64,000 nt of DNA from the NCBI GenBank assembly GCA_964596685.1, contig CAZQVA010000007.1, forward strand, positions 11,026-75,025, written 5' to 3'. The stretch is from an uncultured bacterium (GTDB taxonomy: Bacteria; Chlamydiota; Chlamydiia; Chlamydiales; VFKH01). This document shows positions 8,688 to 57,774 of this stretch, in pieces. The position numbers and the translations under genes are program-made. The notes under the pieces were generated by a model. The model made no database searches. It was not told where the DNA came from and saw only the letters and a program-made list of their open reading frames with translations. Within the stretch, counting starts at the first letter, position 1. Each line of letters opens with the position of its first letter.

Positions 8688-9309
8688 TCCTACACGACTC
8701 GCTCCACATGCGCATCACTACCCAATCATTGAAATTCATCCCCTACCCCATGCACTTGATCCCCTTATCGCATTCTGGCATACAGCTTCTCATATCATTT
8801 TTTCGAGCCGAACAGCTGTAAAAATTTTTTATCAGGAATCCCTTTCTCTAAGACTTCCCATTGATCATTTTCAAATACTGAGTATAGGGCAGGCAACTAC
8901 TGAACTAGCTACCGAATTGGGCTTCCGAGTCACTGCCACAGCACCGATTGCGCAGGCTGAGGGATTTCTTACCATCCTTCCTCCTAAAAACACCCTTCTC
9001 TTTTATCCCCACGCCAAGGGGGCTCGCGACGTGCTAAAAACAATGCTCCTAGAAGGACAGTATGCCTTTAAGGAAGCTATTTTGTATGAAACGCGGCCTA
9101 AAAACACACTAGAACCTATTGACCTCAAACTTTTTACGACACTCATCTTTTCAAGTCCCTCCTGCGTTCAAGCCTTTCTCCACCATTTTGGCACATTCCC
9201 CCCTAACACCACCCTCTTAGCAATTGGTGAAATCACACTTCACGCATTGAAAACCGCTCTTAGCCAGTTGAAACTGGACTTTAGACATGCGTCAATGTGT
9301 GGGGTGTAA
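8665..9309 (+). CDS. hemD: uroporphyrinogen-III synthase-like (HEM4 family)
   Basis: Two-lobed pattern IIFSSRTAV...ILSIGQATTELA and LIFSSPSCV...LLAIGEITLHAL typical of HemD. I chose the start at ATG 8665. The last two codons and the stop lie inside repeat element B1. Confidence 0.55.
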   Translation: MQLYLGLDPTRLAPHAHHYPIIEIHPLPHALDPLIAFWHTASHIIFSSRTAVKIFYQESLSLRLPIDHFQILSIGQATTELATELGFRVTATAPIAQAEGFLTILPPKNTLLFYPHAKGARDVLKTMLLEGQYAFKEAILYETRPKNTLEPIDLKLFTTLIFSSPSCVQAFLHHFGTFPPNTTLLAIGEITLHALKTALSQLKLDFRHASMCGV

Positions 9310-9772
9310 TTCAAAGTGTTAGTTAACTATTTAGAGCTAAAATGGAAGCTTTTCTTAAGGATTCACCAGACAACCTTCTGCCAAAAAATCCTTATTTTCC
9401 CCCTCTGTGCGCTCTGTGGGCTCTGTGGTAAATATTTTTATTTAAAACTTATGTTAATTATTTTGAACCACAGAGCCCACAGAGCGCACAGAGGGTACAT
9501 AAACTGTTATACATTATTCTGAATGAGAATTAATAGGGACTGGAGTGGGTATTAAAAGAATAGACTTCTTTCGAAATTATCTTTGATGGAAAAATTTACG
9601 GTTTTTACGCAGTTTGATCGCTAAATTTTGAGAGCATATGTGGACATATGGTCGATAAATTTAGGGATCAAGATGATAAAAAACGTAATTTTAATAACAA
9701 AGATAATTTCGAAAGAAGTCTAATATGAGTCTCTAGTTTTTCATCCTTCCTAACACTTTGAATTACACCCCA
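9300..9772. mobile_element. Family-B MITE-like element, copy B1 (carries a nested D element)
   Basis: Perfect 23-nt terminal inverted repeats TGGGGTGTAATTCAAAGTGTTAG / CTAACACTTTGAATTACACCCCA, flanked by ATGTG on both sides (9295-9299 and 9773-9777). Internal perfect 28-bp hairpin arms at 9401-9428 and 9468-9495. Homologous to 18396-18714 and 57468-57774. Confidence 0.8.
9561..9722. mobile_element. Family-D palindromic element, copy D1, nested inside B1
   Basis: Termini are TAGACTTCTTTCGAAA ... TTTCGAAAGAAGTCTA. Copies B2 and B3 read straight through the insertion point (AGAAGAATAYGAGTC), so they act as empty sites. Confidence 0.8.
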
Positions 9773-9818
9773 ATGTGCGTCAAAAGTAGAATTAATGTCG
9801 ATCTCACTTTAAACTATT

Positions 9819-9984
9819 GACTGGACTTTAGACAAAATCTAATGTTTTTAAAGCGGTAGCTCCAGAGTAGATTTGAGGCGGGGTGTCATCGTGCATAGCT
9901 TCAGCTATTCGCGATGATGCACCGCCTTAAAGATGCTCTAGAGATATCCCTGTAAAAATATTAGATTTTGTCTAAAGTCCAGTC
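9819..9984. mobile_element. Family-E palindromic element, copy E1
   Basis: 166 bp with termini GACTGGACTTTAGACAAAATCTAAT ... ATTAGATTTTGTCTAAAGTCCAGTC and long internal pairing. Second copy at 54973-55138. Ends 32 nt before the sctU start. Confidence 0.8.
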
Positions 9985-10016
9985 TTAAGTAGAGCTACGC
10001 TGTGAGTTAAAAAGAT

Positions 10017-11081
10017 ATGGGTGAAAAAACCGAACAGGCGACCCCGAAGAAGCTGCGCGATGCGCGGCGCAAGGGACAAGTCGCCAAATCAGAAGACTTT
10101 CCTTCAGCCATTACCTTTATTGCAGGAATTGGTCTAACACTTGGTACAGCAGATTATATCTATACCAAGATGGGCTCATACTTTGTTGCTGTCTTTCGTA
10201 TGAGTGCATCAACAGACATTCAAACCAAAATCGGTGGGCTCATGTCCAACGCTTTGACTGTCATCATCGCTGCCTCTTTACCAATTGCAGGCATCGTTGC
10301 GGCACTGGGCATCCTAACACGCTTTCTTATCACAGGCCCTGTTTTCTCCACAGAAGTGTTCAAACCAAACTTCAAGAAATTTAATCCCGTCGAAAACATT
10401 AAACAAAAATTTAAATTTCAAACTGTTTTTGAACTTCTTAAGTCGACGCTCAAGCTACTAATCGCAGGGATATTAATTTATTATACGATGAAAGAAGGCG
10501 TCAAAGAGATCATTCAGGTTGCTTCACTGCCGCTTATGGGCTCTGTTTTGCTCTTTAAAGAGCTTCTTATTCGCGTTGTCATTCGCGTAGGAATTTTTTT
10601 CATCATTGTGGCACTTTTTGACTTGATCTACCAAAAATTGAACTTTGCAAAACAGATGAAAATGGAAAAGTTCGAAATTAAGCAGGAATATAAAGATACA
10701 GAAGGAAACCCTGAGATCAAAAGTAAACGCCGCTCGATTGCACAAGAAATTGCCTACCAAGATCCTACTTCAGCGGTTAGACGTTCAAAAGCACTCATCA
10801 CTAACCCCACACACATTGCTATTGCCATTGGCTATGAACCAGAGCAGTATTCTGCCCCTTTTATTCTCGCCAAAGGGATGAACACATTGGCTGAAAGAAT
10901 GATTCAAGAAGCACTTACTTTTAATATTCCGATCATGCGCGATGTCCCCCTAGCAAGAAAACTCTTTGAAACTGGGCAGGTGATGCAATATATCCCAGAA
11001 GACACTTATGAAGCTGTTGCAGAGATCTTGCGCACAATCTTGGCGGAAGCCCCTGGAGAATTTAATCCCGAAACAAGTTGA
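10017..11081 (+). CDS. sctU: type III secretion export-switch protein SctU (CdsU/YscU/FlhB family)
   Basis: N-terminus MGEKTEQATPKKLRDARRKGQVAKS, four TM segments, and the autocleavage motif NPTH (LITNPTHIAIAI). Confidence 0.95.
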   Translation: MGEKTEQATPKKLRDARRKGQVAKSEDFPSAITFIAGIGLTLGTADYIYTKMGSYFVAVFRMSASTDIQTKIGGLMSNALTVIIAASLPIAGIVAALGILTRFLITGPVFSTEVFKPNFKKFNPVENIKQKFKFQTVFELLKSTLKLLIAGILIYYTMKEGVKEIIQVASLPLMGSVLLFKELLIRVVIRVGIFFIIVALFDLIYQKLNFAKQMKMEKFEIKQEYKDTEGNPEIKSKRRSIAQEIAYQDPTSAVRRSKALITNPTHIAIAIGYEPEQYSAPFILAKGMNTLAERMIQEALTFNIPIMRDVPLARKLFETGQVMQYIPEDTYEAVAEILRTILAEAPGEFNPETS

Positions 11082-11084
11082 ACT

Positions 11085-11247
11085 TATACCCATTTCACCT
11101 GAAGAATTGGTTTTAGACCGAGAGAAAGCCCCGGGCTCGAGCCATCAAAAAAGTCCCCATATTAGTAATATGAGGACTTTTTTGATGGCTCGATCGCGGG
11201 AGCTTTTTCTTCGGCCTAAAACCAATTCTTCAGGTGAAATGGGTATA
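11085..11247. mobile_element. Family-A palindromic element, copy A1 (between sctU and sctV)
   Basis: 163 bp with termini TATACCCATTTCACCTGAAGAATTGG ... CCAATTCTTCAGGTGAAATGGGTATA and nearly full-length arm pairing. GTTGAAC lies on both sides (11077-11083 and 11249-11255), offset by 1 nt from each end. Confidence 0.85.
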
Positions 11248-11338
11248 TGTTGAACCACTAAAAGAAAAAAATTGGCAGCGGAAAATGCTGCTTCTAGAGT
11301 AGATTATGAGTATGCACCCACAGGCAAGAAATTAAGAA

Positions 11339-13465
11339 ATGAGCGGAATTTTCAATAAAATTGGCACCTCTCTAGGCAATGAAAAGGCGCTCACAGCTAT
11401 TTCAAAATCAAGTGATTTGATACTAGCCGGCTGGATTGTGGCGATCATCACTATGATGATTATTCCTATTCCACCTGCCATCATCGACCTTGTTATTGCT
11501 TTTAACCTGACTGTGGCTATCGGCCTTCTGATGGTGGCTATTTACATCCCCAGTGCTTTGCAACTGTCGATGTTCCCATCACTATTATTGATCACTACAC
11601 TGTTTCGCCTTGGCGTCAACATCTCTTCAACGCGCCAAATTCTATTGCACGCCTATGCAGGGCATATCATTCAGACCTTTGGTAATTTCGTCGTGGGTGG
11701 TAACTTCGTCATCGGTGGTATCATCTTCGTCATTATCGTCGTTGTACAATTCATCGTTGTGACTAAAGGTGCTGAGCGCGTTGCTGAAGTAGCTGCTCGC
11801 TTCCGCTTGGACGCGATGCCAGGTAAGCAGATGAGTATCGACGCAGATATGCGTGCAGGAGTGCTCGACGCAACACAAGCGCGTGAAAAGCGCGCGCTCA
11901 TCCAGCGCGAAAGCGAAATGTATGGTGCGATGGATGGAGCGATGAAGTTCGTCAAAGGGGACGCGATTGCTGGAATGATCATTACCGTCGTCAACGTTAT
12001 TGGCGGGCTGATCATCGGAACTGCTATGCATGGAATGTCCACGATACAAGCAGCACGCGTATATTCTCTTTTGTCAATTGGTGACGGACTCGTTTCTATT
12101 ATCCCCTCTCTGCTCATCTCCGTTACAGCAGGTATCGTCACCACTCGCGTTTCAAGTGACCGCTCAGATAGCAACCTGGGTCGTGAAATCTCTACTCAGA
12201 TTTTTAAACAACCACGTGCGATTCTTATCGCTGCAGGCGTACTCGTTTTAATTGGAATCATCCCGGGATTTCCTACCACCGTGTTTTTCCTGTTAGCTAC
12301 GGTTTTGGGACTGGTGGGCTATAATTTGACGGTCAACCAAAAGCGCAAAGCTGCAAAATCGGGTGGACCAGAAGGCGGCATTGTAGCTACCGATGTAGAA
12401 GGTCATAGTGTGGTGACTCCAGGAAAAGAAGATTTTGCGCTCACACTTCCGGTCATCTTGGAGACAGGTAAAGGGATTTCAAAACTTGTTAATGAAAAAT
12501 CAGGACAAGTCTTTATTGATGAAATGATCCCGCGCATGCGTTTGGCCCTGTACCAAGATATGGGCGTCCGCTATCCCGGCGTACACGTACGCACAGATGC
12601 TCCTCACTTGGAAGCTGATGAATATCTCATCCTTTTGAATGAAGTACCGATTATTCGTGGTAAAATTTTTCTCGGATATATTTTGTGCAATGAATCTCAA
12701 GAGAACTTATTGCGCTATAATATCCCTGCAAAGACCTACCGAAATAATTTAGGTCTTCCAAATGTCTGGGTAGAAGAGCGCTATACCGAGATTGTAAAAA
12801 AAGCGGGCATCAAAATGTGGTCCCCTTTAGAGGTGCTCATCCTTCACCTCTCCTACTTCTTTAAGCACTATTCCAATGAATTTGTTGGGATCCAGGAAGT
12901 GCGCGCCATGTTGGAATTTATGGAAAAATCTTTTCCTGATCTCGTTAAAGAAGTCACACGCCTCGTTCCTCTTCAAAAACTTACGGAGATTTTTAAGCGT
13001 CTTGTACAAGAAGAGGTCTCCATCAAAGATTTGCGCACTATTTTAGAATCACTCAGTGAATGGGCACAAACAGAAAAAGATACCGTTCTTCTCACTGAGT
13101 ACATTCGCTCTTCACTAAAGCGTTATATCAGTTTCAAACACTCACAAGGTCAATCCACACTTTCTGTTTACCTACTCGATCCTGAAATCGAAGATATGGT
13201 CCGCGGAGCAATTAAGCAGACATCAGCTGGCTCTTACCTCGCCCTTGACCCTGATTCTGTGCAGTTAATTCTCCAAGCAATGCGCACAACGATTTCTCCA
13301 ACAACAGCAAGAGGACAACCTCCCGTACTCCTGACAGCAATTGACGTGCGTCGTTTTGTTCGTAAACTTGTTGAAATGGAATTCCCCAATGTCGCGGTTG
13401 TCTCCTACCAAGAGATTATCCCTGAAATTCGCATTCAACCGCTGGGGCGTATTCAAATAAGCTAA
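11339..13465 (+). CDS. sctV: type III secretion export gate SctV (CdsV/LcrD/FlhA family)
   Basis: 708 aa. N-terminal multi-TM domain with the FHIPEP motif RFRLDAMPGKQMSIDAD, and a large cytoplasmic C-terminal domain. Confidence 0.95.
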   Translation: MSGIFNKIGTSLGNEKALTAISKSSDLILAGWIVAIITMMIIPIPPAIIDLVIAFNLTVAIGLLMVAIYIPSALQLSMFPSLLLITTLFRLGVNISSTRQILLHAYAGHIIQTFGNFVVGGNFVIGGIIFVIIVVVQFIVVTKGAERVAEVAARFRLDAMPGKQMSIDADMRAGVLDATQAREKRALIQRESEMYGAMDGAMKFVKGDAIAGMIITVVNVIGGLIIGTAMHGMSTIQAARVYSLLSIGDGLVSIIPSLLISVTAGIVTTRVSSDRSDSNLGREISTQIFKQPRAILIAAGVLVLIGIIPGFPTTVFFLLATVLGLVGYNLTVNQKRKAAKSGGPEGGIVATDVEGHSVVTPGKEDFALTLPVILETGKGISKLVNEKSGQVFIDEMIPRMRLALYQDMGVRYPGVHVRTDAPHLEADEYLILLNEVPIIRGKIFLGYILCNESQENLLRYNIPAKTYRNNLGLPNVWVEERYTEIVKKAGIKMWSPLEVLILHLSYFFKHYSNEFVGIQEVRAMLEFMEKSFPDLVKEVTRLVPLQKLTEIFKRLVQEEVSIKDLRTILESLSEWAQTEKDTVLLTEYIRSSLKRYISFKHSQGQSTLSVYLLDPEIEDMVRGAIKQTSAGSYLALDPDSVQLILQAMRTTISPTTARGQPPVLLTAIDVRRFVRKLVEMEFPNVAVVSYQEIIPEIRIQPLGRIQIS

Positions 13466-13486
13466 TAGAAGGTGCTTTGAAAGTCC

Positions 13487-14656
13487 ATGTCAGATCATGT
13501 TAATCTTAACACAGCTGCCATCGAACGCAATCTTCAACAGCAAATGTCGCGCGAAAATGCCGCACAACAAGTTGCTAGTCAAGAAAGCCTAGACTCTTTG
13601 TGTGAAGAGATTATCAATCCTTGGGCTGCCAGTCAAGCCGACAAAGAACGTTTTCAAAAATCCCTACAAGAACGTAAGACACATTTCGCTAATGCCATAC
13701 AAAAAGCCAAAGGAGAAATAGCAGAAGGGTCAACTCCCCTAGAACAAGCTGCAGCCCAGTTTGAGGCAGCGCATCCCGAACTCAATGCGCGTTCTTTAGT
13801 GAATGCTTTTCTCGCTTTAAGTGACAAAGATTCCGATGCACAACTTTTACAGCAACTACAGGAAGCTTTTCCTGATGTTACGCTCACGGATGATGCCCTT
13901 GAATTTTGCTTACAGCATGCAAAAAGCCCTCTTTTGGAAAAATTGCAAGCCGCAAAAAGCCGTTTAGAGAAACAATTTACCCGTCAAATTGCTGCTGGAC
14001 GGAATGTGAGTCATGAAGCACAAACTTTTGCTCAGAAGGGAATCGGCTCACCAACCGCTTTAAGAGAACTTTATCGCGATATTACCGGTAATCCACGCGA
14101 AGCAACTCCCCTTTTTACAGAACTCTCACAAAAATACAACTTTGGGCAATTGAAAGCTGTCATTCAGTTTCTATTGCATGCTCTAGGGAGCGATCTGCGT
14201 TCAAAAGGCCCTTCTATACAACCCGCAGAATTAACACGTCTCTTTACAGAGGCACGTACTCTGCAAGCCATCTTTGGTGTATACCGCTTTTTTCAGTCGC
14301 GCATGTCTCTTTTGGGTAAAATGTTTGCCGCCCACAATCAACACGTCCCCTCTGCCATCACTTTTGAATCGATGGCGCGTGCATTTATGAAATTACTCGA
14401 TGATCGCTTTCCCAATGCATCAAAAGCTAGACAAAGCGCCCTTCAAATGGGTTTAAGAGATGAACTCGAATGTTTAATCGCTGTCATTTCACAATGGAGA
14501 GATGCCGTACATAATGTTTCAGTCCGCTTATATCGTTCAATTGCTCACCGCGATGAGTTACTCAATTCAATTATTGCCTGTCTTGAGGAATTAGAAGATG
14601 AAGCTGACGAAGAAGAGGATACTCCCAAAAAAGACAACCCCAAAGATGGAGGATAG
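13487..14656 (+). CDS. copN: T3SS gatekeeper, CopN/SctW (YopN-TyeA-like)
   Basis: 389-aa helical protein with an acidic tail. It sits between sctV and a SycE-like chaperone, as copN does in Chlamydia (cdsU-cdsV-copN-scc1-malQ). Confidence 0.65.
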   Translation: MSDHVNLNTAAIERNLQQQMSRENAAQQVASQESLDSLCEEIINPWAASQADKERFQKSLQERKTHFANAIQKAKGEIAEGSTPLEQAAAQFEAAHPELNARSLVNAFLALSDKDSDAQLLQQLQEAFPDVTLTDDALEFCLQHAKSPLLEKLQAAKSRLEKQFTRQIAAGRNVSHEAQTFAQKGIGSPTALRELYRDITGNPREATPLFTELSQKYNFGQLKAVIQFLLHALGSDLRSKGPSIQPAELTRLFTEARTLQAIFGVYRFFQSRMSLLGKMFAAHNQHVPSAITFESMARAFMKLLDDRFPNASKARQSALQMGLRDELECLIAVISQWRDAVHNVSVRLYRSIAHRDELLNSIIACLEELEDEADEEEDTPKKDNPKDGG

Positions 14657-14659
14657 GCG

Positions 14660-16680: not shown

Positions 16681-16686
16681 CGACAC

Positions 16687-16850
16687 TATACCCATTTCAC
16701 CTGAAGAATTGGATTTTAGACCGAGAGAAAGCCCCGGGCTCGAGCCAGCAAAAAAGTTCCCATATTGGTAATATGAGGACTTTTTTGCTGGCTCGATCGC
16801 GGGAGCTTTTTCTTCGGCCTAAAACCAATTCTTCAGGTGAAATGGGTATA
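16687..16850. mobile_element. Family-A palindromic element, copy A2
   Basis: 164 bp, nearly identical to A1 and in the same orientation. Begins 6 nt after the malQ stop. Confidence 0.85.
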
Positions 16851-16897
16851 AACTTCCTTCGAAACCATCTTTCGATGGAAAAATTCGCGATTTTTAT
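16851..16897. repeat. Family-D half element (D4) abutting A2
   Basis: AACTTCCTTCGAAACCATCTTTCGATGGAAAAATTCGCGATTTTTA aligns with the left half of D1 (TAGACTTCTTTCGAAATTATCTTTGATGGAAAAATTTACGGTTTTTA). Confidence 0.65.
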
Positions 16898-18392: not shown

Positions 18393-18395
18393 ATG

Positions 18396-18714
18396 GGGGT
18401 GTAATTCAAAGTGTTAGGCAGGATGAAAAAACTAGGGACTCATATTCTTCTAATACCCACTCCGGTCTCCATTAATTCTCGTTCAAGATAAGGTGTAATA
18501 GCTTATGCACCCTCTGTGTGCTCTGTGGGCTCTGTGGGCTCTGTGGTTAAAAAAATTAACATACGTTTTAAATAAAAATATTCACTAAAGAGTCCACAAA
18601 GCACACAGAGGGGGGGGGAAATAAGGATTTTTTGGCAGAAGGTTGTCTGGTGAATCCTTAAGAAAAGCTTCCATTCTAGCTCTAAATAGTTAACTAAAAC
18701 CTTGAATTACACCC
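18396..18714. mobile_element. Family-B MITE-like element, copy B2 (inverted relative to B1, no D insert)
   Basis: Collinear with the reverse complement of B1. One hairpin arm has four instead of three GCTCTGTGG units and the other arm is decayed. Starts 3 nt after the upstream stop codon. Confidence 0.8.
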
Positions 18715-18715
18715 T

Positions 18716-18813
18716 CGTTGTTTCAGAGGATAGCGGGTGATAAACGCCTTGAAGGTCATGGCCAATATGCCATATCCAAGAGGAGTTTATAAGTAGATGC
18801 CTCTGAAACAACG
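18716..18813. repeat. 98-bp hairpin element (G) abutting B2
   Basis: 14-nt inverted termini CGTTGTTTCAGAGG ... CCTCTGAAACAACG. Only one copy in the window. Confidence 0.6.
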
Positions 18814-18820
18814 ATCAAAA

Positions 18821-19019
18821 GTTGATTTAAAGCCGAACTCACATTTTTTTAGTAAAACGCAACTTATTCCCTCGGAAAATGTGGTGGTATTCCACGTTTT
18901 TCGTTGGAATAACGTGTTTGAGTACCACGTTTTTCGTTGGAATAACGTGTTTGAGTACCACGTTTTTCGTTGGAATAACGTGATATCTATATAGACACGA
19001 ATTCGACTTTAAGTTGCAA
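18821..19019. repeat. Family-F unit: imperfect inverted TTTAAAGYCGAAC-type ends enclosing a tandem array
   Basis: Left end GTTGATTTAAAGCCGAACTCAC (18821-18842). Right end GAATTCGACTTTAAGTTGCAA (18999-19019) is its imperfect reverse complement. Confidence 0.5.
18892..18982. repeat. 33-bp tandem repeat, about 2.8 copies
   Basis: CCACGTTTTTCGTTGGAATAACGTGTTTGAGTA is repeated head-to-tail at 18892, 18925 and 18958 (the last copy is truncated). The first two copies are identical. Confidence 0.95.
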
Positions 19020-19036
19020 TCACCTCTATAGGTGTT

Positions 19037-26435: not shown

Positions 26436-26601
26436 TATACCCATTCCATCTGAAGAATTGGATTTTAGGCCGAAGAAAAAGCTCTCGCGATCGAGGCAGA
26501 AAAAAAAGGCCTCATATTACTAATATGGGGGCTTTTTTTCTGCCTCGAGCTCGGAGGATTTTCTCGGCCTAAAATCCAATTCTCTAGGTGGAATGGGTAT
26601 A
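26436..26601. mobile_element. Family-A palindromic element, copy A3 (opposite arm order to A1/A2)
   Basis: 166 bp with termini TATACCCATTCCATCTGAAGAATTGG ... CCAATTCTCTAGGTGGAATGGGTATA. Ends 18 nt downstream of the minus-strand ahpC stop. Confidence 0.85.
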
Positions 26602-27342: not shown

Positions 27343-27386
27343 ACAAAAAAAAACATAAGTTCGACTTTAAAGTCGAACTTATGTTT
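27343..27386 (-). terminator. intrinsic terminator of glyQS (perfect 18-bp palindrome plus U-run)
   Basis: AAACATAAGTTCGACTTT/AAAGTCGAACTTATGTTT at 27351-27386 overlaps the glyQS stop by 1 nt. On the minus strand it is followed by a run of T (27343-27350). Confidence 0.75.
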
Positions 27387-28777
27387 TATACAAAATCCTT
27401 GTGGATCATTTGCATAATGGCACCCTTCAAGTCACTAAGCGCTACGCGGTGTTGCTTCATTGTATCTCTATGGCGCAGCGTGACTGTACCTTGTTCTAAA
27501 GTATCGTAATCCACTGTTAAACAAATCGGTGTGCCAATTTCGTCGTGGCGACGGTAGCGCTTACCAATTGCTCCTGCAACATCAAAATCTACCACCCAAT
27601 CTTGTTGCAATTCTTCAAAAATGGTGTTTGCCTGGGCTACTAACTCCTCTTTCTTCATCAAAGGGAATACCGCAATTGTGTAAGGAGCAACGCGAGGATG
27701 CAAATGCAATACTGTACGCGTGTCACCACCCTCCAGCATCTCTTCTTCATAGGCATCACACAGAAGCGCTAAAATTGTACGATCAAGACCAAAAGTAGGC
27801 TCGATCACATGAGGAACAAATCTCTCTCCTGTTTTAGGATCAAGGTACTCTAATCTCTCACCCGAATGCTCTGCGTGACGTTTCAGATCAAAATCTGTGC
27901 GATATGCCAAGCCATATAATTCACTACAACCAAAAGGGAATTCGTAGTGTATATCCACGGTACGCTTAGAATAATGTGAAAGTTTCTCTTTAGGGTGTTC
28001 GTGTAGTTTGAGATGATTGGAGTCAAGACCAATGAACTGGCACCATTCCTGCATAGATTTTAGCCATTGTTCAAATAGCAGTTCCCACTGACTTTCATGA
28101 ATAAAGTACTCAATTTCCATTTGTTCAAATTCAATTTGACGAAAGAGGAAATTGCCTGGTGTGATTTCATTGCGGAAAGCTTTACCAATTTGTGCAACAC
28201 CAAAAGGCACGTGTACGCGCATCGTATCAACGATGTTTTTAAAATCTAAAAAGATGGCTTGTGCTGTTTCTGGACGCAGATAGATCAGATCTTGTGCTCC
28301 CGCTTCAGCAACCTTGCTCAATTGTGTAGCAAACATCAAGTTGAAGTGCCGCGCAGCCGTCCAATCGAATCCTTTGCATTTCGGGCAACGAATCTGTTTT
28401 TCTAAGATAAGCGCTGTCATCTCCTCACAAGACTTACCTTCTACATCCACTCCAATCGCCTCTTCAATGAGATGGTCGACGCGCAAACGCGCTTTACAAG
28501 CCTTACAATCAATTAGTGCATCACTAAAGCCATCGACATGACCAGAAGCCTTCCATGTTTTTGGATGTAAAAAAATAGGGCCATCGAGAGCAAGCATATC
28601 TTTGCGTTGATGAATAAAACGCTTCCACCACAATTCTTTGACGCGACGTTTCATCTCTGCGCCCAATGGACCATAGCTATAGGTGTTTGCAAAACCACCA
28701 TAAATTTCAGAACCAGGGAAAATGAACCCACGACGCTTACAAAGCGCGACGACCGATTTTAGATCTGCTGCACTCAT
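27386..28777 (-). CDS. glyQS: glycyl-tRNA synthetase, homodimeric (alpha2, class IIa) type
   Basis: 463 aa from MSAADLKSVVALCKRRGFIFPGSEIYGG, with class II motifs (YLRPETAQ, FRNEITP, GLDR). The ORF-track start at 28834 adds 19 unlikely residues. Confidence 0.9.
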   Translation of the reverse strand: MSAADLKSVVALCKRRGFIFPGSEIYGGFANTYSYGPLGAEMKRRVKELWWKRFIHQRKDMLALDGPIFLHPKTWKASGHVDGFSDALIDCKACKARLRVDHLIEEAIGVDVEGKSCEEMTALILEKQIRCPKCKGFDWTAARHFNLMFATQLSKVAEAGAQDLIYLRPETAQAIFLDFKNIVDTMRVHVPFGVAQIGKAFRNEITPGNFLFRQIEFEQMEIEYFIHESQWELLFEQWLKSMQEWCQFIGLDSNHLKLHEHPKEKLSHYSKRTVDIHYEFPFGCSELYGLAYRTDFDLKRHAEHSGERLEYLDPKTGERFVPHVIEPTFGLDRTILALLCDAYEEEMLEGGDTRTVLHLHPRVAPYTIAVFPLMKKEELVAQANTIFEELQQDWVVDFDVAGAIGKRYRRHDEIGTPICLTVDYDTLEQGTVTLRHRDTMKQHRVALSDLKGAIMQMIHKDFV

Positions 28778-29475: not shown

Positions 29476-30363
29476 GGGCCGCTGCCTCAAAGAGCTGATT
29501 GCCTACATCAATAAAGAACAATTTGATTTACTTCACTTGCAAGAAGTGACAAGCGGTGTGTTAAGCTTTGCAGATGACACTTTCGAGACATTAAAGCGCG
29601 CCACTGGGCTTCATGGGACTTTGGTCATGGATTCAAAAGTCGATCAACAAGCAAATAGTTATACCCATCCCACCTGAAGAATTGGATTTTAGGCCGAAGA
29701 AAAAGCTTCCGCGATCGCGCCAGAAAAAAAGTCTCCATATTACTAATATGAGGACTTTTTTTCTGACTCGAGCCCGGGGCTTTCTCTTTAGTCTAAAATC
29801 CAATTCTTCAGGTGGGATGGGTATACATAGGAAATGCCACTTTATACCGCCCCCAATGGGTCTACTTAGACCATCATTTCATGCGTTTTCAGCCAGCAGA
29901 AATCATTTCCTATCCGGACACCAAAGATCCTAGTTTACACACTAGATCTGCCATTTTCATTAAATTTAAAACACCCAAAGAGGTATTTTGGAGCATTAAC
30001 ACCCATCTTGCCTGGGGGCCCACTCCACTTGATGAACCTTATAAAGTTAAAGAAGCTACCCTTCTTTCTGAAAAAATCATCACTTTAGACGCCCCTTTTA
30101 TCCTTTCTGGTGATTTCAATGTCACCAGAGAAACACAAACGGCTCATTTACTTGAGCAACATGGCTTTAGCCTAACGCGGCAGCACCAAATACCCAACAC
30201 TCTCAACCCAACTATTCACCGCAGCAAGCATCTTTTTCCAAAGGGTCTAGCTGTCGACTACTTAATTGTTCATCCTTCATTACACTGCGGAGGGTTTACC
30301 TGTGTCACCGAGCCTTCTCTCTCCGACCATTTCGCACTACGCGCCAATTTTAACGATTTATAA
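29444..30363 (+). pseudogene. endonuclease/exonuclease/phosphatase (EEP) family gene interrupted by repeat A4
   Basis: The N-terminal part (MMKFLQLNIY...LLHLQEV, strong AGGAGG RBS) stops at a TGA inside the repeat. The C-terminal part (INTHLAW, ILSGDFNV, SLSDHFAL) resumes in another frame right after the repeat. Removing 164 or 167 nt joins them in frame. Confidence 0.8.
29660..29825. mobile_element. Family-A palindromic element, copy A4, inserted in the EEP gene
   Basis: 166 bp with termini TATACCCATCCCACCTGAAGAATTGG ... CCAATTCTTCAGGTGGGATGGGTATA. ATAG lies next to both ends (29655-29658 and 29827-29830). Confidence 0.85.
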
Positions 30364-30916: not shown

Positions 30917-31040
30917 AATTACCTCCTTAATCGATTGTGGTGGAATTTTATCCCAGATTGAGCCGTTTTAAGTTCTATAGTCTCTTAAGCCATGCTTAAA
31001 ATGTGATCTGTGAAAGATAGTCATGGTGCACACACCAAAG

Positions 31041-31063
31041 GTTGATTTAAAGTCGAACTCACC
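31041..31063. repeat. Family-F 22-nt motif, solo copy abutting the recJ stop
   Basis: GTTGATTTAAAGTCGAACTCACC. The same motif occurs at 18821 and 57788. Confidence 0.7.
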
Positions 31064-37582: not shown

Positions 37583-37749
37583 GACGTGAGCCTTTTGCAA
37601 AACTATCCGTAATATGAACTGGTTGCCTAGCAGCGATCTAAGGAGAAAACCTCCTTACGCATGGCTATGGTCATTCATGCGTCGCTTTTTTTTGAATCCT
37701 GCAGCCCTCACTCAGGTCCTATTATGGATAGTTTTTCAAAAGGCTCACG
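37583..37749. repeat. 25-nt inverted repeat pair enclosing ~117 nt (unclassified)
   Basis: CGTGAGCCTTTTGCAAAACTATCC (37583-37606) matches GGATAGTTTTTCAAAAGGCTCACG (37725-37749) apart from a one-nt bulge. Lies in the secDF upstream region. Confidence 0.5.
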
Positions 37750-37757
37750 TGAGTTCT

Positions 37758-37838
37758 ATATATGAGAGCTTTTTTTATGACTCGAGCTCAGGGCTTTCTC
37801 TTCTGTCTACAACCAATTCTTCAAGTGGAATGGGTATA
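37758..37838. repeat. Family-A half element (A5), broken at the palindrome centre
   Basis: ATATGAGAGC...CTCGAGCTCAGGGCTTTCTCTTCTGTCTACAACCAATTCTTCAAGTGGAATGGGTATA. Only one arm is present, and its terminus faces the RND operon. Confidence 0.8.
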
Positions 37839-37839
37839 T

Positions 37840-37863
37840 TAGACTTCTTTCGAAAGAAGTCTA
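37840..37863. repeat. Family-D minimal 24-bp perfect palindrome (D3), possible terminator of the RND operon
   Basis: TAGACTTCTTTCGAAAGAAGTCTA. Lies 2 nt downstream of the RND pump stop (minus strand) and 1 nt from A5. Confidence 0.75.
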
Positions 37864-44961: not shown

Positions 44962-45030
44962 CAAATGTTTGATACAATAAGAGAAAGCTACACTGCTTTG
45001 ATTTAAGGTGTCTAGCAATTTTCTGGACTT

Positions 45031-45080
45031 TATACCCATTCCACTTGAAGAATTGGTTTTAGACAGAAGAGAAGGCCCTT
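45031..45080. repeat. Family-A half element (A6), terminus facing the ccoN-RND block
   Basis: TATACCCATTCCACTTGAAGAATTGGTTTTAGACAGAAGAGAAGGCCC. 47 of its first 49 nt are identical to the reverse complement of A5. Confidence 0.8.
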
Positions 45081-45097
45081 CAAATCTAAAATTTCGT

Positions 45098-45478
45098 TGT
45101 GGGAAGAGATGCAATCGCTCGTTCAAAGTTTGACCGAGAGGAAAGTCTGGACTTTTTAGGGACAAGATACCAGTGAAAGACTGGGGACCATCAGAAGGTC
45201 ACGGAAAGTGCAACAGAAAATACCCCTCCCAGATTTAATGGGTAAGGATGAAAATGCTTCTTTAATAAAAGAGGCCTGATTTTAGGCAACTAAAACAGCT
45301 GTAAACCCTATCTAAAGCAAGATCGGATGTTGTTCATATGCTGTGGTCCGCGGCGAACAACATATTTTTAGTATCGCTTGAGGGCAGTGGTGACACTGCT
45401 CCTTAGACAAATGATTGCACGCATTGTCTCTTTTATTAGCGACAATGCCGACAGAATCCGGCTTATTATCTTCCCACA
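45098..45478 (+). ncRNA. rnpB: RNase P RNA, bacterial type A
   Basis: Conserved blocks GAGAGGAAAGTCTGGAC, AGTGCAACAGAAAATACC, GGGTAAGGATGAAA and CGACAGAATCCGGCTTA. The P1 helix pairs TGTGGGAAGA (45098-) with TCTTCCCACA (-45478). Confidence 0.9.
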
Positions 45479-45975
45479 TTTTTTTTGTTGTAATCGGACT
45501 CACGTTTTTCAAGCAGAAGTAGAGCTTGCTTCCTCTCTACTCCCCCAGCATATCCGTGCAAACGCCCATCTGAACCAATCACCCTATGACAAGGAATAAT
45601 GATAGACAAGGGATTGCATCCAACAGCATTGGCGACGGCTCGCACCGCATCCACTCTACCTATCTGCTGCGCAATCTCTTTATACGTAGTAACTGTTCCA
45701 TAAGGGATCTTTTGCAATGCTTTCCAAGTATCCTGTTGCAAAGGAGTGCCACCTAATAAATGGTAGGGCATGTCAAAGCGCGTGCGGCATTTATGAAAGT
45801 ATTCATTCAATGCTTGATGTAGCTCTAAAAATAAGGGATGCTCGTGATCATGAATCCATGTGGGTTGAATCGCAGGCAGAGCCTTCTGTGGCACAAAGTA
45901 AAGTCCACAAAGAGCGCCGTCCTGCGCTACCACCCGCATCTGTCCAAGAGGCGTATCAATATGCGTATATTCCAT
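45466..45975 (-). CDS. ogt: methylated-DNA--protein-cysteine methyltransferase
   Basis: 169 aa with active site IIIPCHRVIGSDG and a helix-turn-helix region TYKEIAQQIG. Its 3' end overlaps the rnpB 3' end by 13 nt (convergent). Confidence 0.9.
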   Translation of the reverse strand: MEYTHIDTPLGQMRVVAQDGALCGLYFVPQKALPAIQPTWIHDHEHPLFLELHQALNEYFHKCRTRFDMPYHLLGGTPLQQDTWKALQKIPYGTVTTYKEIAQQIGRVDAVRAVANAVGCNPLSIIIPCHRVIGSDGRLHGYAGGVERKQALLLLEKRESDYNKKNVGR

Positions 45976-46122: not shown

Positions 46123-46170
46123 CATTTCTTAAACGCATTCTTTCACAACACTTCGTCTCCTTAGTTGTTA

Positions 46171-48590: not shown

Positions 48591-48640
48591 CAGCCCCTTA
48601 TCTTTTCACAGATTTTAGTTTTACTTATAGGTAGATTGTC

Positions 48641-49408: not shown

Positions 49409-49437
49409 TCTTGTTCAACGTGAGTTAAGGATGGATT

Positions 49438-50460: not shown

Positions 50461-50480
50461 ATCGAGCACACAGTAGACTT

Positions 50481-50555
50481 CAGACTTCTTTTGAAAGCAT
50501 CTTTGTTGTTAAAATTGCACTTTTTAGCATCAAAGACAATTTCGAAAGAAGTCTG
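50481..50555. repeat. Family-D short element (D2)
   Basis: CAGACTTCTTTTGAAAGCATCTTTG...CAAAGACAATTTCGAAAGAAGTCTG is a 75-bp hairpin 20 nt after the sppA stop. Confidence 0.75.
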
Positions 50556-50615
50556 GTAAGAAGATATTTCTTTTCGACAGAAAGTTCAACTGTTGCTTTC
50601 CCTCTGGAGTTTTTA

Positions 50616-53018: not shown

Positions 53019-53596
53019 AATCGAAAAAGATAGCAGTTACTGGTAGCATCGGCTGTGGAAAATCGACTTTTTGTCGCTTTCTTGAGCAGCAAGGTGCTTA
53101 CTACGTGAGTGCAGATGCGATTGTCCATCACATCCTTGACAGTGATCTAGCCGTTCAGCAGAGCATGATTGCTTTGCTTGGGAATGATATCGCCATAGAG
53201 AACCGCATCGACCGTAAAAAAGTTGCTCATAAGGTTTTTCGAAACTCTCACCTCCTCCAACAACTTGAGACTCTTCTCCATCCGAAAGTCAAAAAAGTCA
53301 TTGAAGCAGCTTTTTTAGATGCGAAAAAAAAACACATTCCACTCTTTGTTGCTGAAGTGCCCCTGCTCTTTGAAATTGGAATGGAGCACGCCTTTGATGT
53401 GACTGTACTCGTAACCGCTCCTGAAGAAGAGTGTTTGAAACGCTATCAAGGTACTGAAGAAGATTTTCGTCTCCGTATGAAGCGGCATTGGCCGCAAGAA
53501 AAGAAAAGTCAGCTTGCCGATTGGATCATCGATAATCGCGCTGATATTAGTGAATTAAAAAAGCAATCTGAGACTTTCATAAGATCATTACACTAA
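53012..53596 (+). CDS. coaE: dephospho-CoA kinase
   Basis: P-loop IAVTGSIGCGKST near the N-terminus. I chose GTG 53012 (7-nt overlap with polA). The ORF-track ATG 52952 lies deep inside polA. Confidence 0.8.
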   Translation: MLESKKIAVTGSIGCGKSTFCRFLEQQGAYYVSADAIVHHILDSDLAVQQSMIALLGNDIAIENRIDRKKVAHKVFRNSHLLQQLETLLHPKVKKVIEAAFLDAKKKHIPLFVAEVPLLFEIGMEHAFDVTVLVTAPEEECLKRYQGTEEDFRLRMKRHWPQEKKSQLADWIIDNRADISELKKQSETFIRSLH

Positions 53597-53647
53597 CCTT
53601 ATGAAAGGACTCACCAACAAAAACTTAATTGGCACACCTACCCTCTT

Positions 53648-54970
53648 ATGAATGATGAAGAGCTCAATGAGGAGCTAAATAACGCTCCTGACAAGATCAT
53701 ATCCTCTGGAAATATCATTAAAATTGCCGACCTACAGCGTATGAGCATCGAAGATCTACATGCCTATGCTCGTGCTGGAGGCGTCAAAAATCTTGGCTCT
53801 TTGACAAAGTCGCAAATTGTTTTCGAAATTGTCAAAGTAAAGTCTCATGAACGTGCTGGAGACCTTCTTTACGGCGAAGGCGTTCTTGAAGTTCTTCCCG
53901 ATGGATTTGGGTTTTTAAGATCCCCCATGTATAACTACATGCCCTCCGTTGAGGACATCTACGTGTCCCCCGTACAAATTCGTCGTTTTGATTTGAAAAA
54001 GGGCGATACGATTGGCGGCACGATTCGCCCTCCAAAGGATAAAGAGAAATATTTTGCTCTTCTGAAAGTCGATAGTTTAAATGGCAAGGCACCTGAGCGC
54101 TTCAGAGAGCGTACACTCTTTGAAAATCTTACTCCCTTATACCCCAATGAGCGTTTGGTGATGGAAACACACCAAGACTGCTATGCAACACGCGTGCTTG
54201 ATCTTGTAACCCCTATCGGTAAAGGACAACGCGGTCTTATCGTCGCTCCACCTCGCTCCGGTAAAACGATGATTTTGCAGAACATGGCCATCGCCATTGC
54301 AAAAAACAATCCTGAAGTTAGTCTCATTGTTCTTCTCATCGATGAGCGTCCTGAAGAAGTCACGGAAATGGTGCGTTTGGTGAAGGGGGAAGTGATCGCT
54401 TCTACTTTTGATGAGCCACCAGAACGCCACGTACAAGTGGCAGAAATGGTGATTGAAAAGGCGCGCCGTTTGGTAGAATGTGGCCAAGATGTCGTTATTC
54501 TTTTAGATTCTCTCACTCGTTTAGCGCGCGCTTACAACACAGTGCAGCCGCATTCTGGAAAAATTCTAAGTGGTGGTGTCGACGCTAACGCCCTCCACAA
54601 ACCAAAAAGATTTTTTGGTGCCGCTCGTAATATCGAGCAAGGTGGTTCCCTAACTATTATCGCATCTGCTCTGATCGAAACTGGATCAAGAATGGATGAG
54701 GTAATCTTTGAAGAATTTAAGGGAACTGGTAATATGGAATTGGTACTTGATCGACGTTTGGCTGATCGCCGCGTTTATCCTGCTATCGATATGATCAAGA
54801 GTGGAACGCGTCGAGAAGAACAACTCTACCACCCCAGCGAATTGGAGAAGGTTCACCAACTTCGTCAGGCTACGTCAGAGCTCTCACCTATTGATGCAAT
54901 GAACTTACTATTGGGCCGTTTGAAAAAAACGCGCAATAATATCGAGTTTCTTTTATCCATGAAGGATTAA
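53648..54970 (+). CDS. rho: transcription termination factor Rho
   Basis: 440 aa. RNA-binding domain (GFGFLR), P-loop APPRSGKT, and [13 protein letters not shown]. Confidence 0.95.
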
Positions 54971-54972
54971 AA

Positions 54973-55138
54973 ACTGGACTTTAGGCGAAATCTAATATTT
55001 TTAAAGCGGTAGCTCCAGGGCGTATTTAAGGCGTGGTATCATCTGTGCATGGCTTTAGCTATCCGCAATGGCGCACCTCCTGAAAGATGCTTTAAAGCTA
55101 TCCCTAATAAAACCGCTAGATTTTGTCTAAAGTCTAGT
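54973..55138. mobile_element. Family-E palindromic element, copy E2
   Basis: 166 bp, collinear with E1 (AACTGGACTTTAGGCGAAATCTAAT...CTAGATTTTGTCTAAAGTCTAGT). Begins 2 nt after the rho stop. Confidence 0.8.
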
Positions 55139-55183
55139 AACAACCCGCCCTTTTAAAATCTCTTTGAAGGGGCACCCAGAGCT

Positions 55184-55227
55184 AAGGCCGGATGCAAATT
55201 AGGTAACCTTCCGGCCTTCTTTATTTT
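55184..55227 (+). terminator. possible intrinsic terminator
   Basis: 9-bp GC-rich stem AAGGCCGGA / TCCGGCCTT followed by CTTTATTTT. The loop is long at 17 nt. Confidence 0.4.
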
Positions 55228-55318
55228 CCAGTGACTTCTTATTGTTCAAAATTGGTATCCGCGCTAGTATTTTAGCGTGTTATTTACCCCTTCCTTTTGT
55301 GGACCATAAGAGCCAATC

Positions 55319-57466
55319 TTGCAAACGCGTATTCGTTTTTTTATTTTTACAGCTCTTTGTGGCACCTTCTTTAGCAGTATATTATATGCACAAACCACAC
55401 CAGAGCAATGGCTTGAAGTGTGTGAAGAGCTCGAATGCTTAGAACGCACGCGTGCTGCCTGCCTTCCGCCCCCCACTCTTTATAATTACTATGGGCAAAT
55501 TGGCTACTTTCAAATGCCAAGTGCGCGTTGTAAAGAAGAGGGCACGGGTGCAATTGGGTTCTCTCTTGTCGATCCTTATGACAATTATTATGCCAGTTTT
55601 CAACTCTTTCGTTTTTTAGAACTCTCAGGTATTTATCGCGTTTTTACGGGGATTGAAGATTTAAATTTGAGCAAATTTGGCTTTGGGGATTTTTCGGACA
55701 AGGGTGTGAATGCTAAATTTACTCTTTTACATGCCCAGGATACTGATTATCGCTTTCCCAGTATTGCTATAGGTGTTGATGACTTCCTAGGATCGTGCGG
55801 TTTTTATGCCTGGTATATTGTGGCTACGCAAGTCCTTCCCAAATACAATTTAGAACTTAGCTTGGGATATGGAATTGAAAGAATGCGCGGTCTCTTTGGT
55901 GGAATCGCCTTTTCTCCCTTTGCTCGTTCTAAAGACCCCGTCCATAAAGGACTGACATTAACAGCTGAATATGACTGTATCGATTATAGCGATCCCGACT
56001 CAGAACCACACCCCGATGGTAGAACTCAAAAGTCCAAAATTAATTGGGGTTTTCAATACCAGCTTGGTCCTTATCTACAACTAACGGCGAGTCGATTGAG
56101 GGGGGAGACCTGGGCAGGAGGTGCAACATTTAACTACAATATCGGAAAGACAACAGGTCTCTTTCCAAAATTTATGGATCCCCCTCTCTACTCTACACCG
56201 ATTGACCATGATCCGATGGGAGAATATCGATCGTTGCGTGCCGTAGTTTGTCAGATGGGTTTTACCTTTGATGACCAGGGGTTTACCCTCTTAGAAGCTG
56301 CCTATTATCCTGCATGCGATGTCTTACGTTTGTATGTTTCAAATGATACTTATCTCAAAGAATGTGTCGTCCATGAACGCATCGTTGCCATCTTAACAGC
56401 TTTAATTCCTCAAAATCTTCATCGCATCGATATCGTTATCGTTGCTGAAAGTATTCCATGCCAGGAATATCATTTTCGTCATAGTGATCTAATACGTTAT
56501 GCAAAAGGATTGATCAGCCCCTGTGAACTAGCCATTCTATCGCGCCTGCGCGAAGTGCCGGGATCAATCAACCACAAGTGTGTTCCCCTGTACAAAAACA
56601 ATGATGTACTGATCGACTGGATCGCTCGTCCACGTTTGCGCACATTTTTTGGTAGCTCTACAGGGAAACTGAAATATGCCATCGATTTAATTGCGTGTTT
56701 TGAGGGATATTTTGGACCAAAAATCTATTACGAACTTGTTCCCGGCTATACTCCCCTTTCAAATACGCAATCACTCGGCAGCTTTGACATCCTCAATCCT
56801 TCTCAATTACTCAACGTCAATTCCGATCGGATTCTTTATTACCAAGCGCGCAATATACGCCTAGAGCAGGGTTTTGTTCAGCGCGCCTGGAATTTAGGCA
56901 AGGGATTCTATCAACGCTTTGGCCTTGGTTTTTTTGATATTGCCTATGCTGGCGTCGCTGCAGAATGGCTCTACTACCCTTTGCACTCCACATGGGCCGT
57001 CGGTCTGGAAGGCGCCCTCTTGCGTAAACGTAATTACTGTGGTTTTGGCTTCCAGGATAAAATTAGAAGATATAGCGGTTACGTTGCAGAATATGTCCCT
57101 TATGTTGCGCTCTTTCAAGGCTTCCTCAATGTCTGGTGGAACCCTGAGCACTTCCCAATCGCCGTAAAATGGAGCCTCGGGCAATTTTTAGCGCGCGATA
57201 TTGGATTAAAAACAGAGGTATTTCGTATCTTTGAAAACGGTCTGCGCCTATCGTTATGGTATACTGTTACCAATGGGCATGATGTCATCAACGGATCTGT
57301 CTACTATGATAAAGGAATTTCTTTTTCCATCCCTCTCGATATCTTCCTTCCAAAATCCACACATACACGTCTTGGCTACGGGATGAGCGCATGGCTACGC
57401 GATGTCGGCTACTGTATTGAAGCGGGGCGTCCTCTCTATACAACACTTTCCGAAGAGCGCAACTAA
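55319..57466 (+). CDS. YjbH/GfcD-family outer membrane beta-barrel protein
   Basis: 715 aa. Signal peptide (TTG start). YGQIGYFQMPSARCKEEG...YYASFQLFRFLE parallels E. coli YjbH FGGVGLLQTPTARMAREG...YSASVQLFPWLE. C-terminal blocks AAEWLYYPLHSTWAVGLEG and GQFLARD...FSIPLDIF also match. Confidence 0.8.
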   Translation: MQTRIRFFIFTALCGTFFSSILYAQTTPEQWLEVCEELECLERTRAACLPPPTLYNYYGQIGYFQMPSARCKEEGTGAIGFSLVDPYDNYYASFQLFRFLELSGIYRVFTGIEDLNLSKFGFGDFSDKGVNAKFTLLHAQDTDYRFPSIAIGVDDFLGSCGFYAWYIVATQVLPKYNLELSLGYGIERMRGLFGGIAFSPFARSKDPVHKGLTLTAEYDCIDYSDPDSEPHPDGRTQKSKINWGFQYQLGPYLQLTASRLRGETWAGGATFNYNIGKTTGLFPKFMDPPLYSTPIDHDPMGEYRSLRAVVCQMGFTFDDQGFTLLEAAYYPACDVLRLYVSNDTYLKECVVHERIVAILTALIPQNLHRIDIVIVAESIPCQEYHFRHSDLIRYAKGLISPCELAILSRLREVPGSINHKCVPLYKNNDVLIDWIARPRLRTFFGSSTGKLKYAIDLIACFEGYFGPKIYYELVPGYTPLSNTQSLGSFDILNPSQLLNVNSDRILYYQARNIRLEQGFVQRAWNLGKGFYQRFGLGFFDIAYAGVAAEWLYYPLHSTWAVGLEGALLRKRNYCGFGFQDKIRRYSGYVAEYVPYVALFQGFLNVWWNPEHFPIAVKWSLGQFLARDIGLKTEVFRIFENGLRLSLWYTVTNGHDVINGSVYYDKGISFSIPLDIFLPKSTHTRLGYGMSAWLRDVGYCIEAGRPLYTTLSEERN

Positions 57467-57467
57467 A

Positions 57468-57774
57468 GAGTGTCATTCAAAGTGTTAGGAGGGGTGAGAA
57501 AAACTAGGGACTCGTATTCTTCTAATACCCACTCCGCTCCTCATTAATTCTCATGCAGCATAAAGCGCAACAGCTTATATGCCCTCTGTATGCTCTGTGA
57601 GCTCTGTGGTTAAAAAAATAATACAAGTTAAAATAAAAATATCTACCACAGAGCCCACAGAGCACACAGAGGGGGAAAATAAGGGTTTTTTGGCAGAAGG
57701 TTATCTGCTGAATCCTTAAGAAGGGCTCCCATTCTAGCTCTGAATAGTTAACTAACACTTTGAATTACACCCCC
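57468..57774. mobile_element. Family-B MITE-like element, copy B3 (same orientation as B2)
   Basis: Collinear with B2 and the reverse complement of B1. The left terminus is slightly eroded. ACTAAA lies on both sides (57462-57467, which includes the yjbH-like TAA stop, and 57776-57781). Confidence 0.8.

Follow-up and report, generated by a model that had tools for sequence, protein, structure and literature searches.

The window analysed here, a stretch of 64 kb from contig CAZQVA010000007.1 of an uncultured member of the Chlamydiota with a G+C content of 43%, contains several families of palindromic repeats, named A, B, D, E and F, many of which lie within a few bases of the stop codon of an upstream gene. 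Marker genes of the Chlamydiota in the window comprise a type III secretion cluster (sctU, sctV, a copN-like gene and a chaperone gene), a fused SecDF of 1513 amino acids of the chlamydial type, glycogen genes, and genes for a Chlam_OMP protein, a CT398-like protein and an Hc1-like histone. The identities of the genes in question, namely hemD, sctU, sctV, malQ, ahpC, recJ, sppA, rho and those for glycine-tRNA ligase, an RND pump and a YjbH-domain protein, were upheld. Proteins of the window are also on record in Logan assemblies from a few sequencing runs, and its Rho is at most 85% identical to any other Rho on record (~80% to that of Parachlamydia), hence pointing to an undescribed lineage. 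A sister strain, represented by run ERR7015365 and 99.2-99.7% identical to the window, could be compared over part of its length.

Palindromic repeat families and their position after stop codons

The families A, B, D, E and F occur far above chance, as pattern searches returned 3-9 matches in the window as compared to 0.01-1.1 in shuffled sequences, and a self-comparison of the window revealed repeats restricted to intergenic spacers plus one gene (Table 1). The elements range in size from 24 to 472 nt, and the only open reading frames (ORFs) inside them run across hairpins. Terminal inverted repeats measure 26-47 nt in family A (terminus sequence TACCCATTTCACCTGAAGAATTGG), 22-26 nt in family B and 16-34 nt in family D (terminus AGACTTCTTTCGAAA). 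Target duplications of 6 bp in family B are apparent from perfect repeats around B1 and B3, and those of family D amount to 3 bp (AAT at D1 and ATT at D3). The five families recognized in the initial annotation are thus real, and more kinds exist, since G and IR97 are palindromic elements present in a single copy. Motif F, with the consensus CAAAAGTTGATTTAAAGYCGAACTCAC, has no conserved GTAG or CGTC tag, and its fold (-1.5 to -7.7 kcal/mol) is too weak for a terminator hairpin. Rfam searches at the gathering threshold recovered only rnpB and tRNAs and none of the elements, and at E<=1 only sub-threshold matches to eukaryotic microRNA hairpins, corresponding to generic long hairpins. B elements hold an ORF of 68-78 amino acids across the central hairpin (9316-9522; 57522-57758), the copies of which are alike only through the repeated DNA, and this ORF is probably not a gene.

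Table 1. Repeat families, individual elements and related motifs located in the window
Feature	Position	Strand	Size and structure	Context
Family A			about 165 nt; terminal repeat TATACCCATTTCACCTGAAGAATTGG, lengthening to 47 nt	4 full and 2 partial copies in window
A1	11085..11247		both TA copies included; fold -122 kcal/mol	3 nt past sctU stop; missing in sister strain
A2	16687..16850		97% identity to A1	6 nt past malQ stop; at terminal TA of a D arm
A3	26436..26601			18 nt past ahpC stop; at TA in ahpC terminator loop
A4	29660..29825			splits endonuclease/exonuclease/phosphatase gene; no stop codon precedes
A5	37751..37838		right half of an A element; left half replaced or interrupted by G	abuts D3
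A6	45031-45078		truncated	within E-terminus fragment 45022..45095, at its TA; divergent ccoN/rnpB spacer
Family B			305-472 nt; terminal repeat GGGGTGTAATTCAAAGTGTTAG; 29-bp central stem from CTCTGTGNG repeats	3 copies in window
B1	9300..9771		6-bp duplication AATGTG at 9294-9299 and 9772-9777; interior inverted relative to B2/B3	hosts D1; terminal repeat provides hemD stop
B2	18395..18715			2-3 nt past stop of transglutaminase/TPR gene; IR97 abuts
B3	57468..57775		ACTAAA at 57462-57467 and 57776-57781	left copy includes YjbH-like gene stop; in sister strain too
Family D			24, 75 and 162 nt, plus one arm fragment; terminal repeat TAGACTTCTTTCGAAA	4 copies in window
D1	9561..9722		3-bp duplication AAT	nested in B1; B2/B3 are the paralogous empty site GAAGAATAYGAG
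D2	50473..50555		75-83 nt	13-20 nt past sppA stop
D3	37840..37863		24-nt perfect palindrome, ATT flanks; collapsed D	2 nt past RND pump stop
D left-arm fragment	16851..16896	+	contains ATG 16875	abuts A2
Family E			about 165 nt; palindromic throughout, 82-nt arms	2 copies and two terminal fragments
E1	9820..9983		164 nt, whole-length palindrome	31 nt in sister strain
E2	54973..55138			2 nt past rho stop; upstream of rho terminator (about 55175-55235)
Solo E terminus	9273..9286	+		within last 13 codons of hemD
Motif F			27 nt, not a bounded element	4 copies, one F-like copy and a perfect palindromic relative
F1	9781..9807	+		3 nt past B1 target duplication
F2	18816..18842	+		downstream of B2 and IR97
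F3	31036..31062	+		1 nt past recJ stop; no adjoining B
F4	57783..57809	+		1-2 nt past B3 target duplication
F-like motif	18999..19019	-		17 nt past glgB stop
Perfect palindrome	27350..27387	-	38 nt; shares F core, then T9	overlaps glycine-tRNA ligase stop
G	37584..37750		167 nt, palindromic; 38-nt terminal repeats	in or beside A5; single copy in window
IR97	18716..18813		98 nt, palindromic; 14-nt terminal repeats	between B2 and F2; single copy in window

The position relative to stop codons was evaluated after merging nested elements into 10 independent intergenic clusters, with uniform placement in element-free intergenic DNA as the null. The cluster start lies at most 6 nt after a stop in 7 of the 10, where 6% would be expected (binomial P about 3e-7), and at most 20 nt after a stop in 9 of them, as compared to 16% of element-free intergenic positions; when each cluster was conditioned on its own spacer, the combined Fisher P was 4e-6. 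Element-free spacers are short, with a median well under 100 nt. All distances listed in the initial annotation were reproduced to within 3 nt upon re-measurement (B2 2-3, B3 0-3, A1 3, A2 6, A3 18, E2 2 and D3 2 nt; D2 20 nt, or 13 nt counting the duplicated terminus), with motif F lying 1 nt past the recJ stop instead of the 0 nt given, and the overlap of the perfect F-like palindrome with the stop of the glycine-tRNA ligase gene was confirmed. Judged by its sequence, this palindrome is the intrinsic terminator of that gene, clearly fitting the rho-independent definition; the long forms of B and E, as well as motif F, do not fit it. However, the wording that elements sit almost always just after stops was based on a selected list and is overstated, since A4 lies in a gene, A6 with its E fragment in the divergent ccoN/rnpB spacer, the solo E terminus in the hemD frame and D1 inside B1.

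Several gene ends and neighbours are affected by the repeats. The last 13 codons of hemD (9268-9309) are built from repeat DNA, namely the solo E terminus plus the target duplication and the terminal repeat of B1, with the TAA at 9307-9309 inside this terminal repeat as originally proposed, and the NCBIfam match of HemD stops at residue 215 of 228, before the repeat-encoded residues. Without B1, the hemD frame would stay open across F1 and close at a TGA that includes the first base of E1. The most plausible start of the transglutaminase/TPR gene, ATG 16875 (MEKFAIFIWGF...), lies within the D-arm fragment, which may hence supply the 5' end of this gene. The RNase P RNA gene rnpB is directly preceded by the E fragment with A6 (45022-45481), and the 3' end of ogt, on the opposite strand, overlaps the 3' end of rnpB by 16 nt.

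Insertion, nesting and collapse of the elements

The target duplication of family A is TA, as established by the exact restoration of two interrupted genes. When A4 and one TA were deleted in silico, the two fragments of its host gene fused into an ORF of 251 amino acids, which matches PF03372 over positions 1-225 of 225, end to end, and more than 100 homologues of about 250 amino acids span the join, covering 97-100% of the restored ORF. The second case emerged when the A terminal repeat was searched against a collection with a single genome for each species; matches were confined to one distant chlamydial metagenome-assembled genome (MAG) carrying a related family of 160-180 nt with the same terminal repeat, designated A', plus one other MAG; three more A' copies and nothing else were obtained from searches of metagenomes, viral contigs and plasmids. 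In the chlamydial MAG (P01_G01_bin.8; L004, 6640-8000), one A' copy splits a DDE transposase gene of ISAs1 type, the upstream end of which is abutted by a second copy, and removal of the first copy together with one TA brings back the motif QLHWVLDTIFNED (conserved LHWVLD...ED). This transposase was considered as the partner of A' and rejected, being a victim of it. Likewise, the D terminus at A2 and the E terminus at A6 are complete only with one TA returned. Family A thus shows the TA duplication expected of miniature inverted-repeat transposable elements (MITEs) derived from IS630/Tc1-mariner, and such an origin is possible; some groups of the IS5 family, however, duplicate 2-3 bp too.

Regarding the two flanking repeats reported to contain a stop codon, a target duplication of 6 bp is plausible for ACTAAA at the YjbH-like gene, whereas GTTGAAC at sctU was not made by insertion of A1, because the empty site of the sister strain already reads GTTGAAC-GTAC-GTTGAAAC and no other A copy shows a 7-bp duplication. 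Direct repeats of 7 nt that predate the insertion are present at two sites, at sctU (11077-11255; GTTGAAC-GTAC-GTTGAAAC) and at hemD (9289-9785), where GCGTCAA-TGT-GCGTCAA remains after removal of B1, and these may have been left by previous insertions there.

Movement is documented by filled and empty sites, with A1 compared to the sister strain, D1 to B2 and B3, and D2 and E2 to the nearest other species. The sctU-sctV spacer measures 96 nt in the sister strain and 257 nt here, and family A is recently active, as A1 is polymorphic between strains that are 99.5% identical. In the nearest other species, the sppA-polA spacer is only 23 nt long and lacks D2, rho is followed by a plain terminator without E2, and no long palindromes are found in orthologous spacers. 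Families B, D, E, F, G and IR97 likewise had no copies in the MAG loci fetched. A2, A4, A5, A6, B1, B3, D2 and E2 are all shared with the sister strain. Besides inserting into one another, the elements undergo collapse of their long palindromes by internal deletion to stubs. Thus, E1 is 164 nt long here but 31 nt in the sister strain, while D3 is only 24 nt here and both sister-strain contigs run on into long D arms, which shows that D3 of the window arose by deletion between two internal TTTCGAAA cores; D3 and E1 have therefore collapsed in opposite strains. Presence/absence polymorphism, nesting, terminal repeats, target duplications and the lack of a transposase domain among the window genes scanned all agree with the initial description of the elements as non-autonomous.

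The elements also diverge quickly, differing between the strains at 26 of 1003 aligned positions (2.6%), as compared to 11 of 1203 (0.9%) in other intergenic DNA (Fisher P = 0.0025) and 0.78% in coding sequence, and hence evolve about three times faster than their flanks. G is 4.8% diverged, with changes that weaken its pairing. The cluster at 37584-37863 between the RND pump gene and secDF differs by 4-5% from the sister-strain contig L028, while the adjacent 181 nt of ordinary spacer are identical, which points to mutation driven by hairpins or to gene conversion between copies. Short-read assembly of this organism is broken up by the repeats: in independent Logan assemblies, at least 14 contig ends (L001, L012-L016, L020-L024, L026, L028) are located within an A, B, D or E element or within the palindrome at 27350-27387. 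The repeats also create misannotated gene ends and one split gene.

Proposed insertion preference and selective filtering, and alternative explanations

The reconstructed targets of family A are themselves palindromic in several cases. The empty site of A1 is a 10-nt palindrome, AACGTACGTT, the A' target in the MAG reads GGTAT-TAG-ATACC, and folding of the reconstructed ahpC flank without A3 gives a 10-bp stem followed by the U tract UUUUUCUAUUU. In three of the four resolvable primary A/A' targets, a perfect stem of 5 bp or more has the TA at its centre or in its loop, as compared to 7.7% of all TA sites in the window (P about 0.002), and three further copies lie exactly at the ends of other palindromes, which belong to family D for A2 and A5 and to family E for A6. 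Motif F adjoins all three B copies, a few bases downstream of each. The earlier proposal that the elements target gene 3' ends or terminator hairpins is therefore supported by A3 in the ahpC terminator loop, by the palindromic A/A' targets and by B upstream of F, but not by E2, which lies between the rho stop and the rho terminator and not in a hairpin, nor by A4 and the MAG copy within genes.

The elements are several unrelated families of transposase-less MITEs, most plausibly selfish, whose proximity to stop codons probably results from insertion preference combined with selective filtering. Their fast divergence between strains, the collapse of D3 and E1 in opposite strains and their absence from orthologous spacers and, for B, D, E and F, from the MAG loci favour a selfish over a conserved nature. 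Family A would tend to choose a TA at the middle or in the loop of a small palindrome, be it a terminator hairpin or the terminus of another element, and family B would insert a few bases upstream of the 27-nt motif F, with such targets themselves being concentrated in the first bases after genes. Copies in coding sequences or promoters would mostly be lost in a genome with very short spacers, and a self-folding element positioned between a stop and a terminator, or in a terminator loop, would do little harm. Any terminator or mRNA-stabilising effect would then be a by-product and not the cause of its presence. A contribution of selection is required because the same position is taken by families that are unrelated and differ in their duplications, because spacers are short and because in-gene copies are rare.

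These last observations could also be accommodated without any insertion preference, if elements inserted at random and survived only in the few harmless bases after the stops of a gene-dense genome, a line of reasoning also applied to the repeats of pneumococci (PMC3049150). In agreement with it, five families of no mutual relation and with different target duplications occupy the same position, element-free spacers are short, and A4 and the MAG copy are examples of hits in genes. Selection alone is nevertheless an unlikely explanation, as B2, with 225 nt of free DNA between convergent genes, and B3, with 526 nt of free DNA and the strong groES promoter 700 nt away, far downstream, still lie no more than 3 nt from a stop, and as neither the presence of F beside all three B copies, nor the palindrome enrichment at A targets, nor nesting at precise element termini is foreseen by it.

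Alternatively, the elements could be retained because they terminate transcription or form 3' hairpins by which the mRNA of the preceding gene is protected or processed, a role suggested for REP/BIME, ERIC, Correia and SPRITE repeats. Folding predicts very stable hairpins for all elements, and the core of every full A copy consists of A6-8, a 12-bp AU-rich stem and U6-8, which resembles a weak bidirectional intrinsic terminator and makes an effect on transcripts possible; its stem of -6 to -8 kcal/mol is, however, far from the -14 to -21 kcal/mol of real terminators in the window. E2 resides inside the rho 3' untranslated region (UTR), but the own terminator of rho follows and E2 is hence not needed as one, and A1, which separates sctU from sctV and is absent in the sister strain, could be polar. 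The four stop-proximal A copies share one orientation, while B is found in both orientations and copies are also seen in a gene and in a promoter region. Collapsed D3 plus a T run was flagged as terminator-like by a promoter/terminator consensus scan, which is too noisy to serve as deciding evidence. Orthologous spacers of the nearest other species do without the elements, and a threefold faster divergence than the flanks, including G changes that break pairing, also speaks against such retention. Fast divergence, polymorphism and decay by collapse weakly disfavour function as the reason for retention, which, on these sequence comparisons, appears quite unlikely.

A REP/BIME-type system, spread on single-stranded hairpins by a RAYT, an IS200/IS605-like tyrosine transposase, is highly improbable: motif F does resemble REPs as a short 27-nt imperfect palindrome right after stops (PMC3733652), its perfect relative doubles as a terminator and B beside F recalls insertion sequence (IS) elements targeting REPs, but F lacks a conserved GTAG/CGTC head and folds poorly, A, B and D make target duplications typical of DDE transposition where IS200/IS605-type elements make none, and no RAYT-like gene was present among the window genes scanned.

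Several points weigh against the combination of insertion preference and filtering favoured above. An autonomous partner was not found for any family in genome, metagenome, viral-contig and plasmid collections or among the window genes; for A, none of the 13 matches from genome and metagenome collections was a full-length IS with its terminal repeats, and viral contigs and plasmids contained none either. Of the 13 A' copies in the MAG, only about 5-8 lie near an ORF stop, and most of these ORFs are unverified and without domain support, so that this tally is ambiguous and was rejected as a replicate of stop-proximity. The test for palindromic targets was set up post hoc (n=4), E2 lies outside any hairpin, and neither E nor D yielded a target rule. 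The four A copies near stops all have the same orientation with respect to the gene before them, which could hint at function but is not significant with n=4. Five unrelated families at one position argue for a family-independent cause, and pure selection is not separable from targeting; a preference of B for F would shift the question to what F is. The sample is also small, with a window of 64 kb and about 35 kb of sister-strain DNA compared.

A more elaborate scheme, in which insertion followed by collapse keeps seeding short stem-loops after stops (F, D3 and terminator-like palindromes such as that of the glycine-tRNA ligase gene), some of which are co-opted as terminators and which then become landing pads for more site-specific MITEs, with B next to F and A in hairpin loops, must be considered doubtful. 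If true, the 3' ends of genes in this chlamydial lineage would harbour an ecosystem that reinforces itself.

Other features of the window stand apart from these families. A tandem repeat at 18864-18982, with about 3.6 copies of a 33-nt unit containing a CACGTT...AACGTG palindrome, lies in the spacer on which the TPR gene and glgB converge and is unrelated to the other families. The ORF of a class I tRNA synthetase, probably ileS (60763-63864), ends with a TAG 18 nt within the tRNA-Arg(CCU) gene (63847-63920), giving a coding/tRNA overlap, and the spacer between groEL and this synthetase gene holds on the minus strand a lysine-rich, Hc1-like (chlamydial histone-like) ORF of 74 amino acids (60415-60639), below the ORF cut-off of 100 amino acids.

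Relation to known repeat systems

In architecture, family A appears closest to the Correia elements (CREE/NEMIS) of Neisseria and other TA-duplicating MITEs. With Correia elements it shares a size of about 100-170 bp, long terminal inverted repeats starting with TATA, duplication of TA, many intergenic copies near genes, transcripts expected to form long hairpins and the absence of an own transposase, while it differs in the central A-run/stem/U-run module and in the chlamydial host. The two are not known to share sequence beyond TA, and the likeness is one of architecture only. Family E, a palindrome of about 165 nt in a transcribed 3' region right after a stop, resembles ERIC-type whole-length palindromes such as ERIC/IRU and YPAL of enterobacteria, although it is unrelated to them in sequence.

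As a community, the elements recall the pneumococcal BOX, RUP and SPRITE repeats, which likewise comprise several unrelated small families per genome, are enriched downstream of coding sequences and include a terminator-like one, the enrichment having been taken as tolerance plus possible co-option (PMC3049150); sequences and phylum differ, and here insertion polymorphism at the strain level, nesting and collapse to stubs are directly evidenced. In Coxiella burnetii, another obligate intracellular bacterium, the MITE families QMITE1 and QMITE2 lie mainly in 3' UTRs, sometimes give C-terminal codons and stops, and act as insertion hot spots (PMC5896051), thus sharing the 3' UTR habit, the supply of codons and stops and nested insertion. 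QMITE2, however, has a GTAG REP and is hit by IS1111 with its own transposase, whereas the nested parasites here are MITEs without a REP tag. For REPs, a distance below 20 bp to an ORF 3' end is documented for the majority of copies, and the stop codon itself may be part of a REP terminus (PMC3733652). The short palindromes left by collapse, together with motif F, resemble REP/BIME in lying near ORF 3' ends and being used as targets by mobile elements, but they lack a GTAG/CGTC tag, no RAYT was seen and very few copies were sampled; A, B, D and E are much longer and differ as a group also by target duplications, observed for A, B and D. Rickettsia palindromic elements (RPEs) are palindromic repeats of an obligate intracellular bacterium found inside reading frames, comparable to the 13 repeat-encoded C-terminal residues of HemD; in-frame insertion with retention is typical of RPEs, whereas A4 breaks its gene.

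Within the Chlamydiota, classical Chlamydia genomes are almost completely without repeats, and the many repeats of the Chlamydia-related Waddlia genome were reported but not dissected (PMC2878342). No description of MITEs in this phylum was found in the literature searched, so that the earlier statement that such a multi-family system had not been described for the lineage is fair within that literature, although the pattern is well described elsewhere. The window thus reveals an active community of several MITE families in an uncultured member of the Chlamydiota, and their position after stops is a real and statistically solid pattern of a kind known from other bacteria. With at least five families and strain-level events comprising one insertion, two collapses and fast decay, this lineage is a natural system that bears on whether collapsed elements turn into terminators, and on whether the gene-end clustering of REP, ERIC, Correia and BOX/RUP/SPRITE repeats reflects where elements insert or where their insertions survive.

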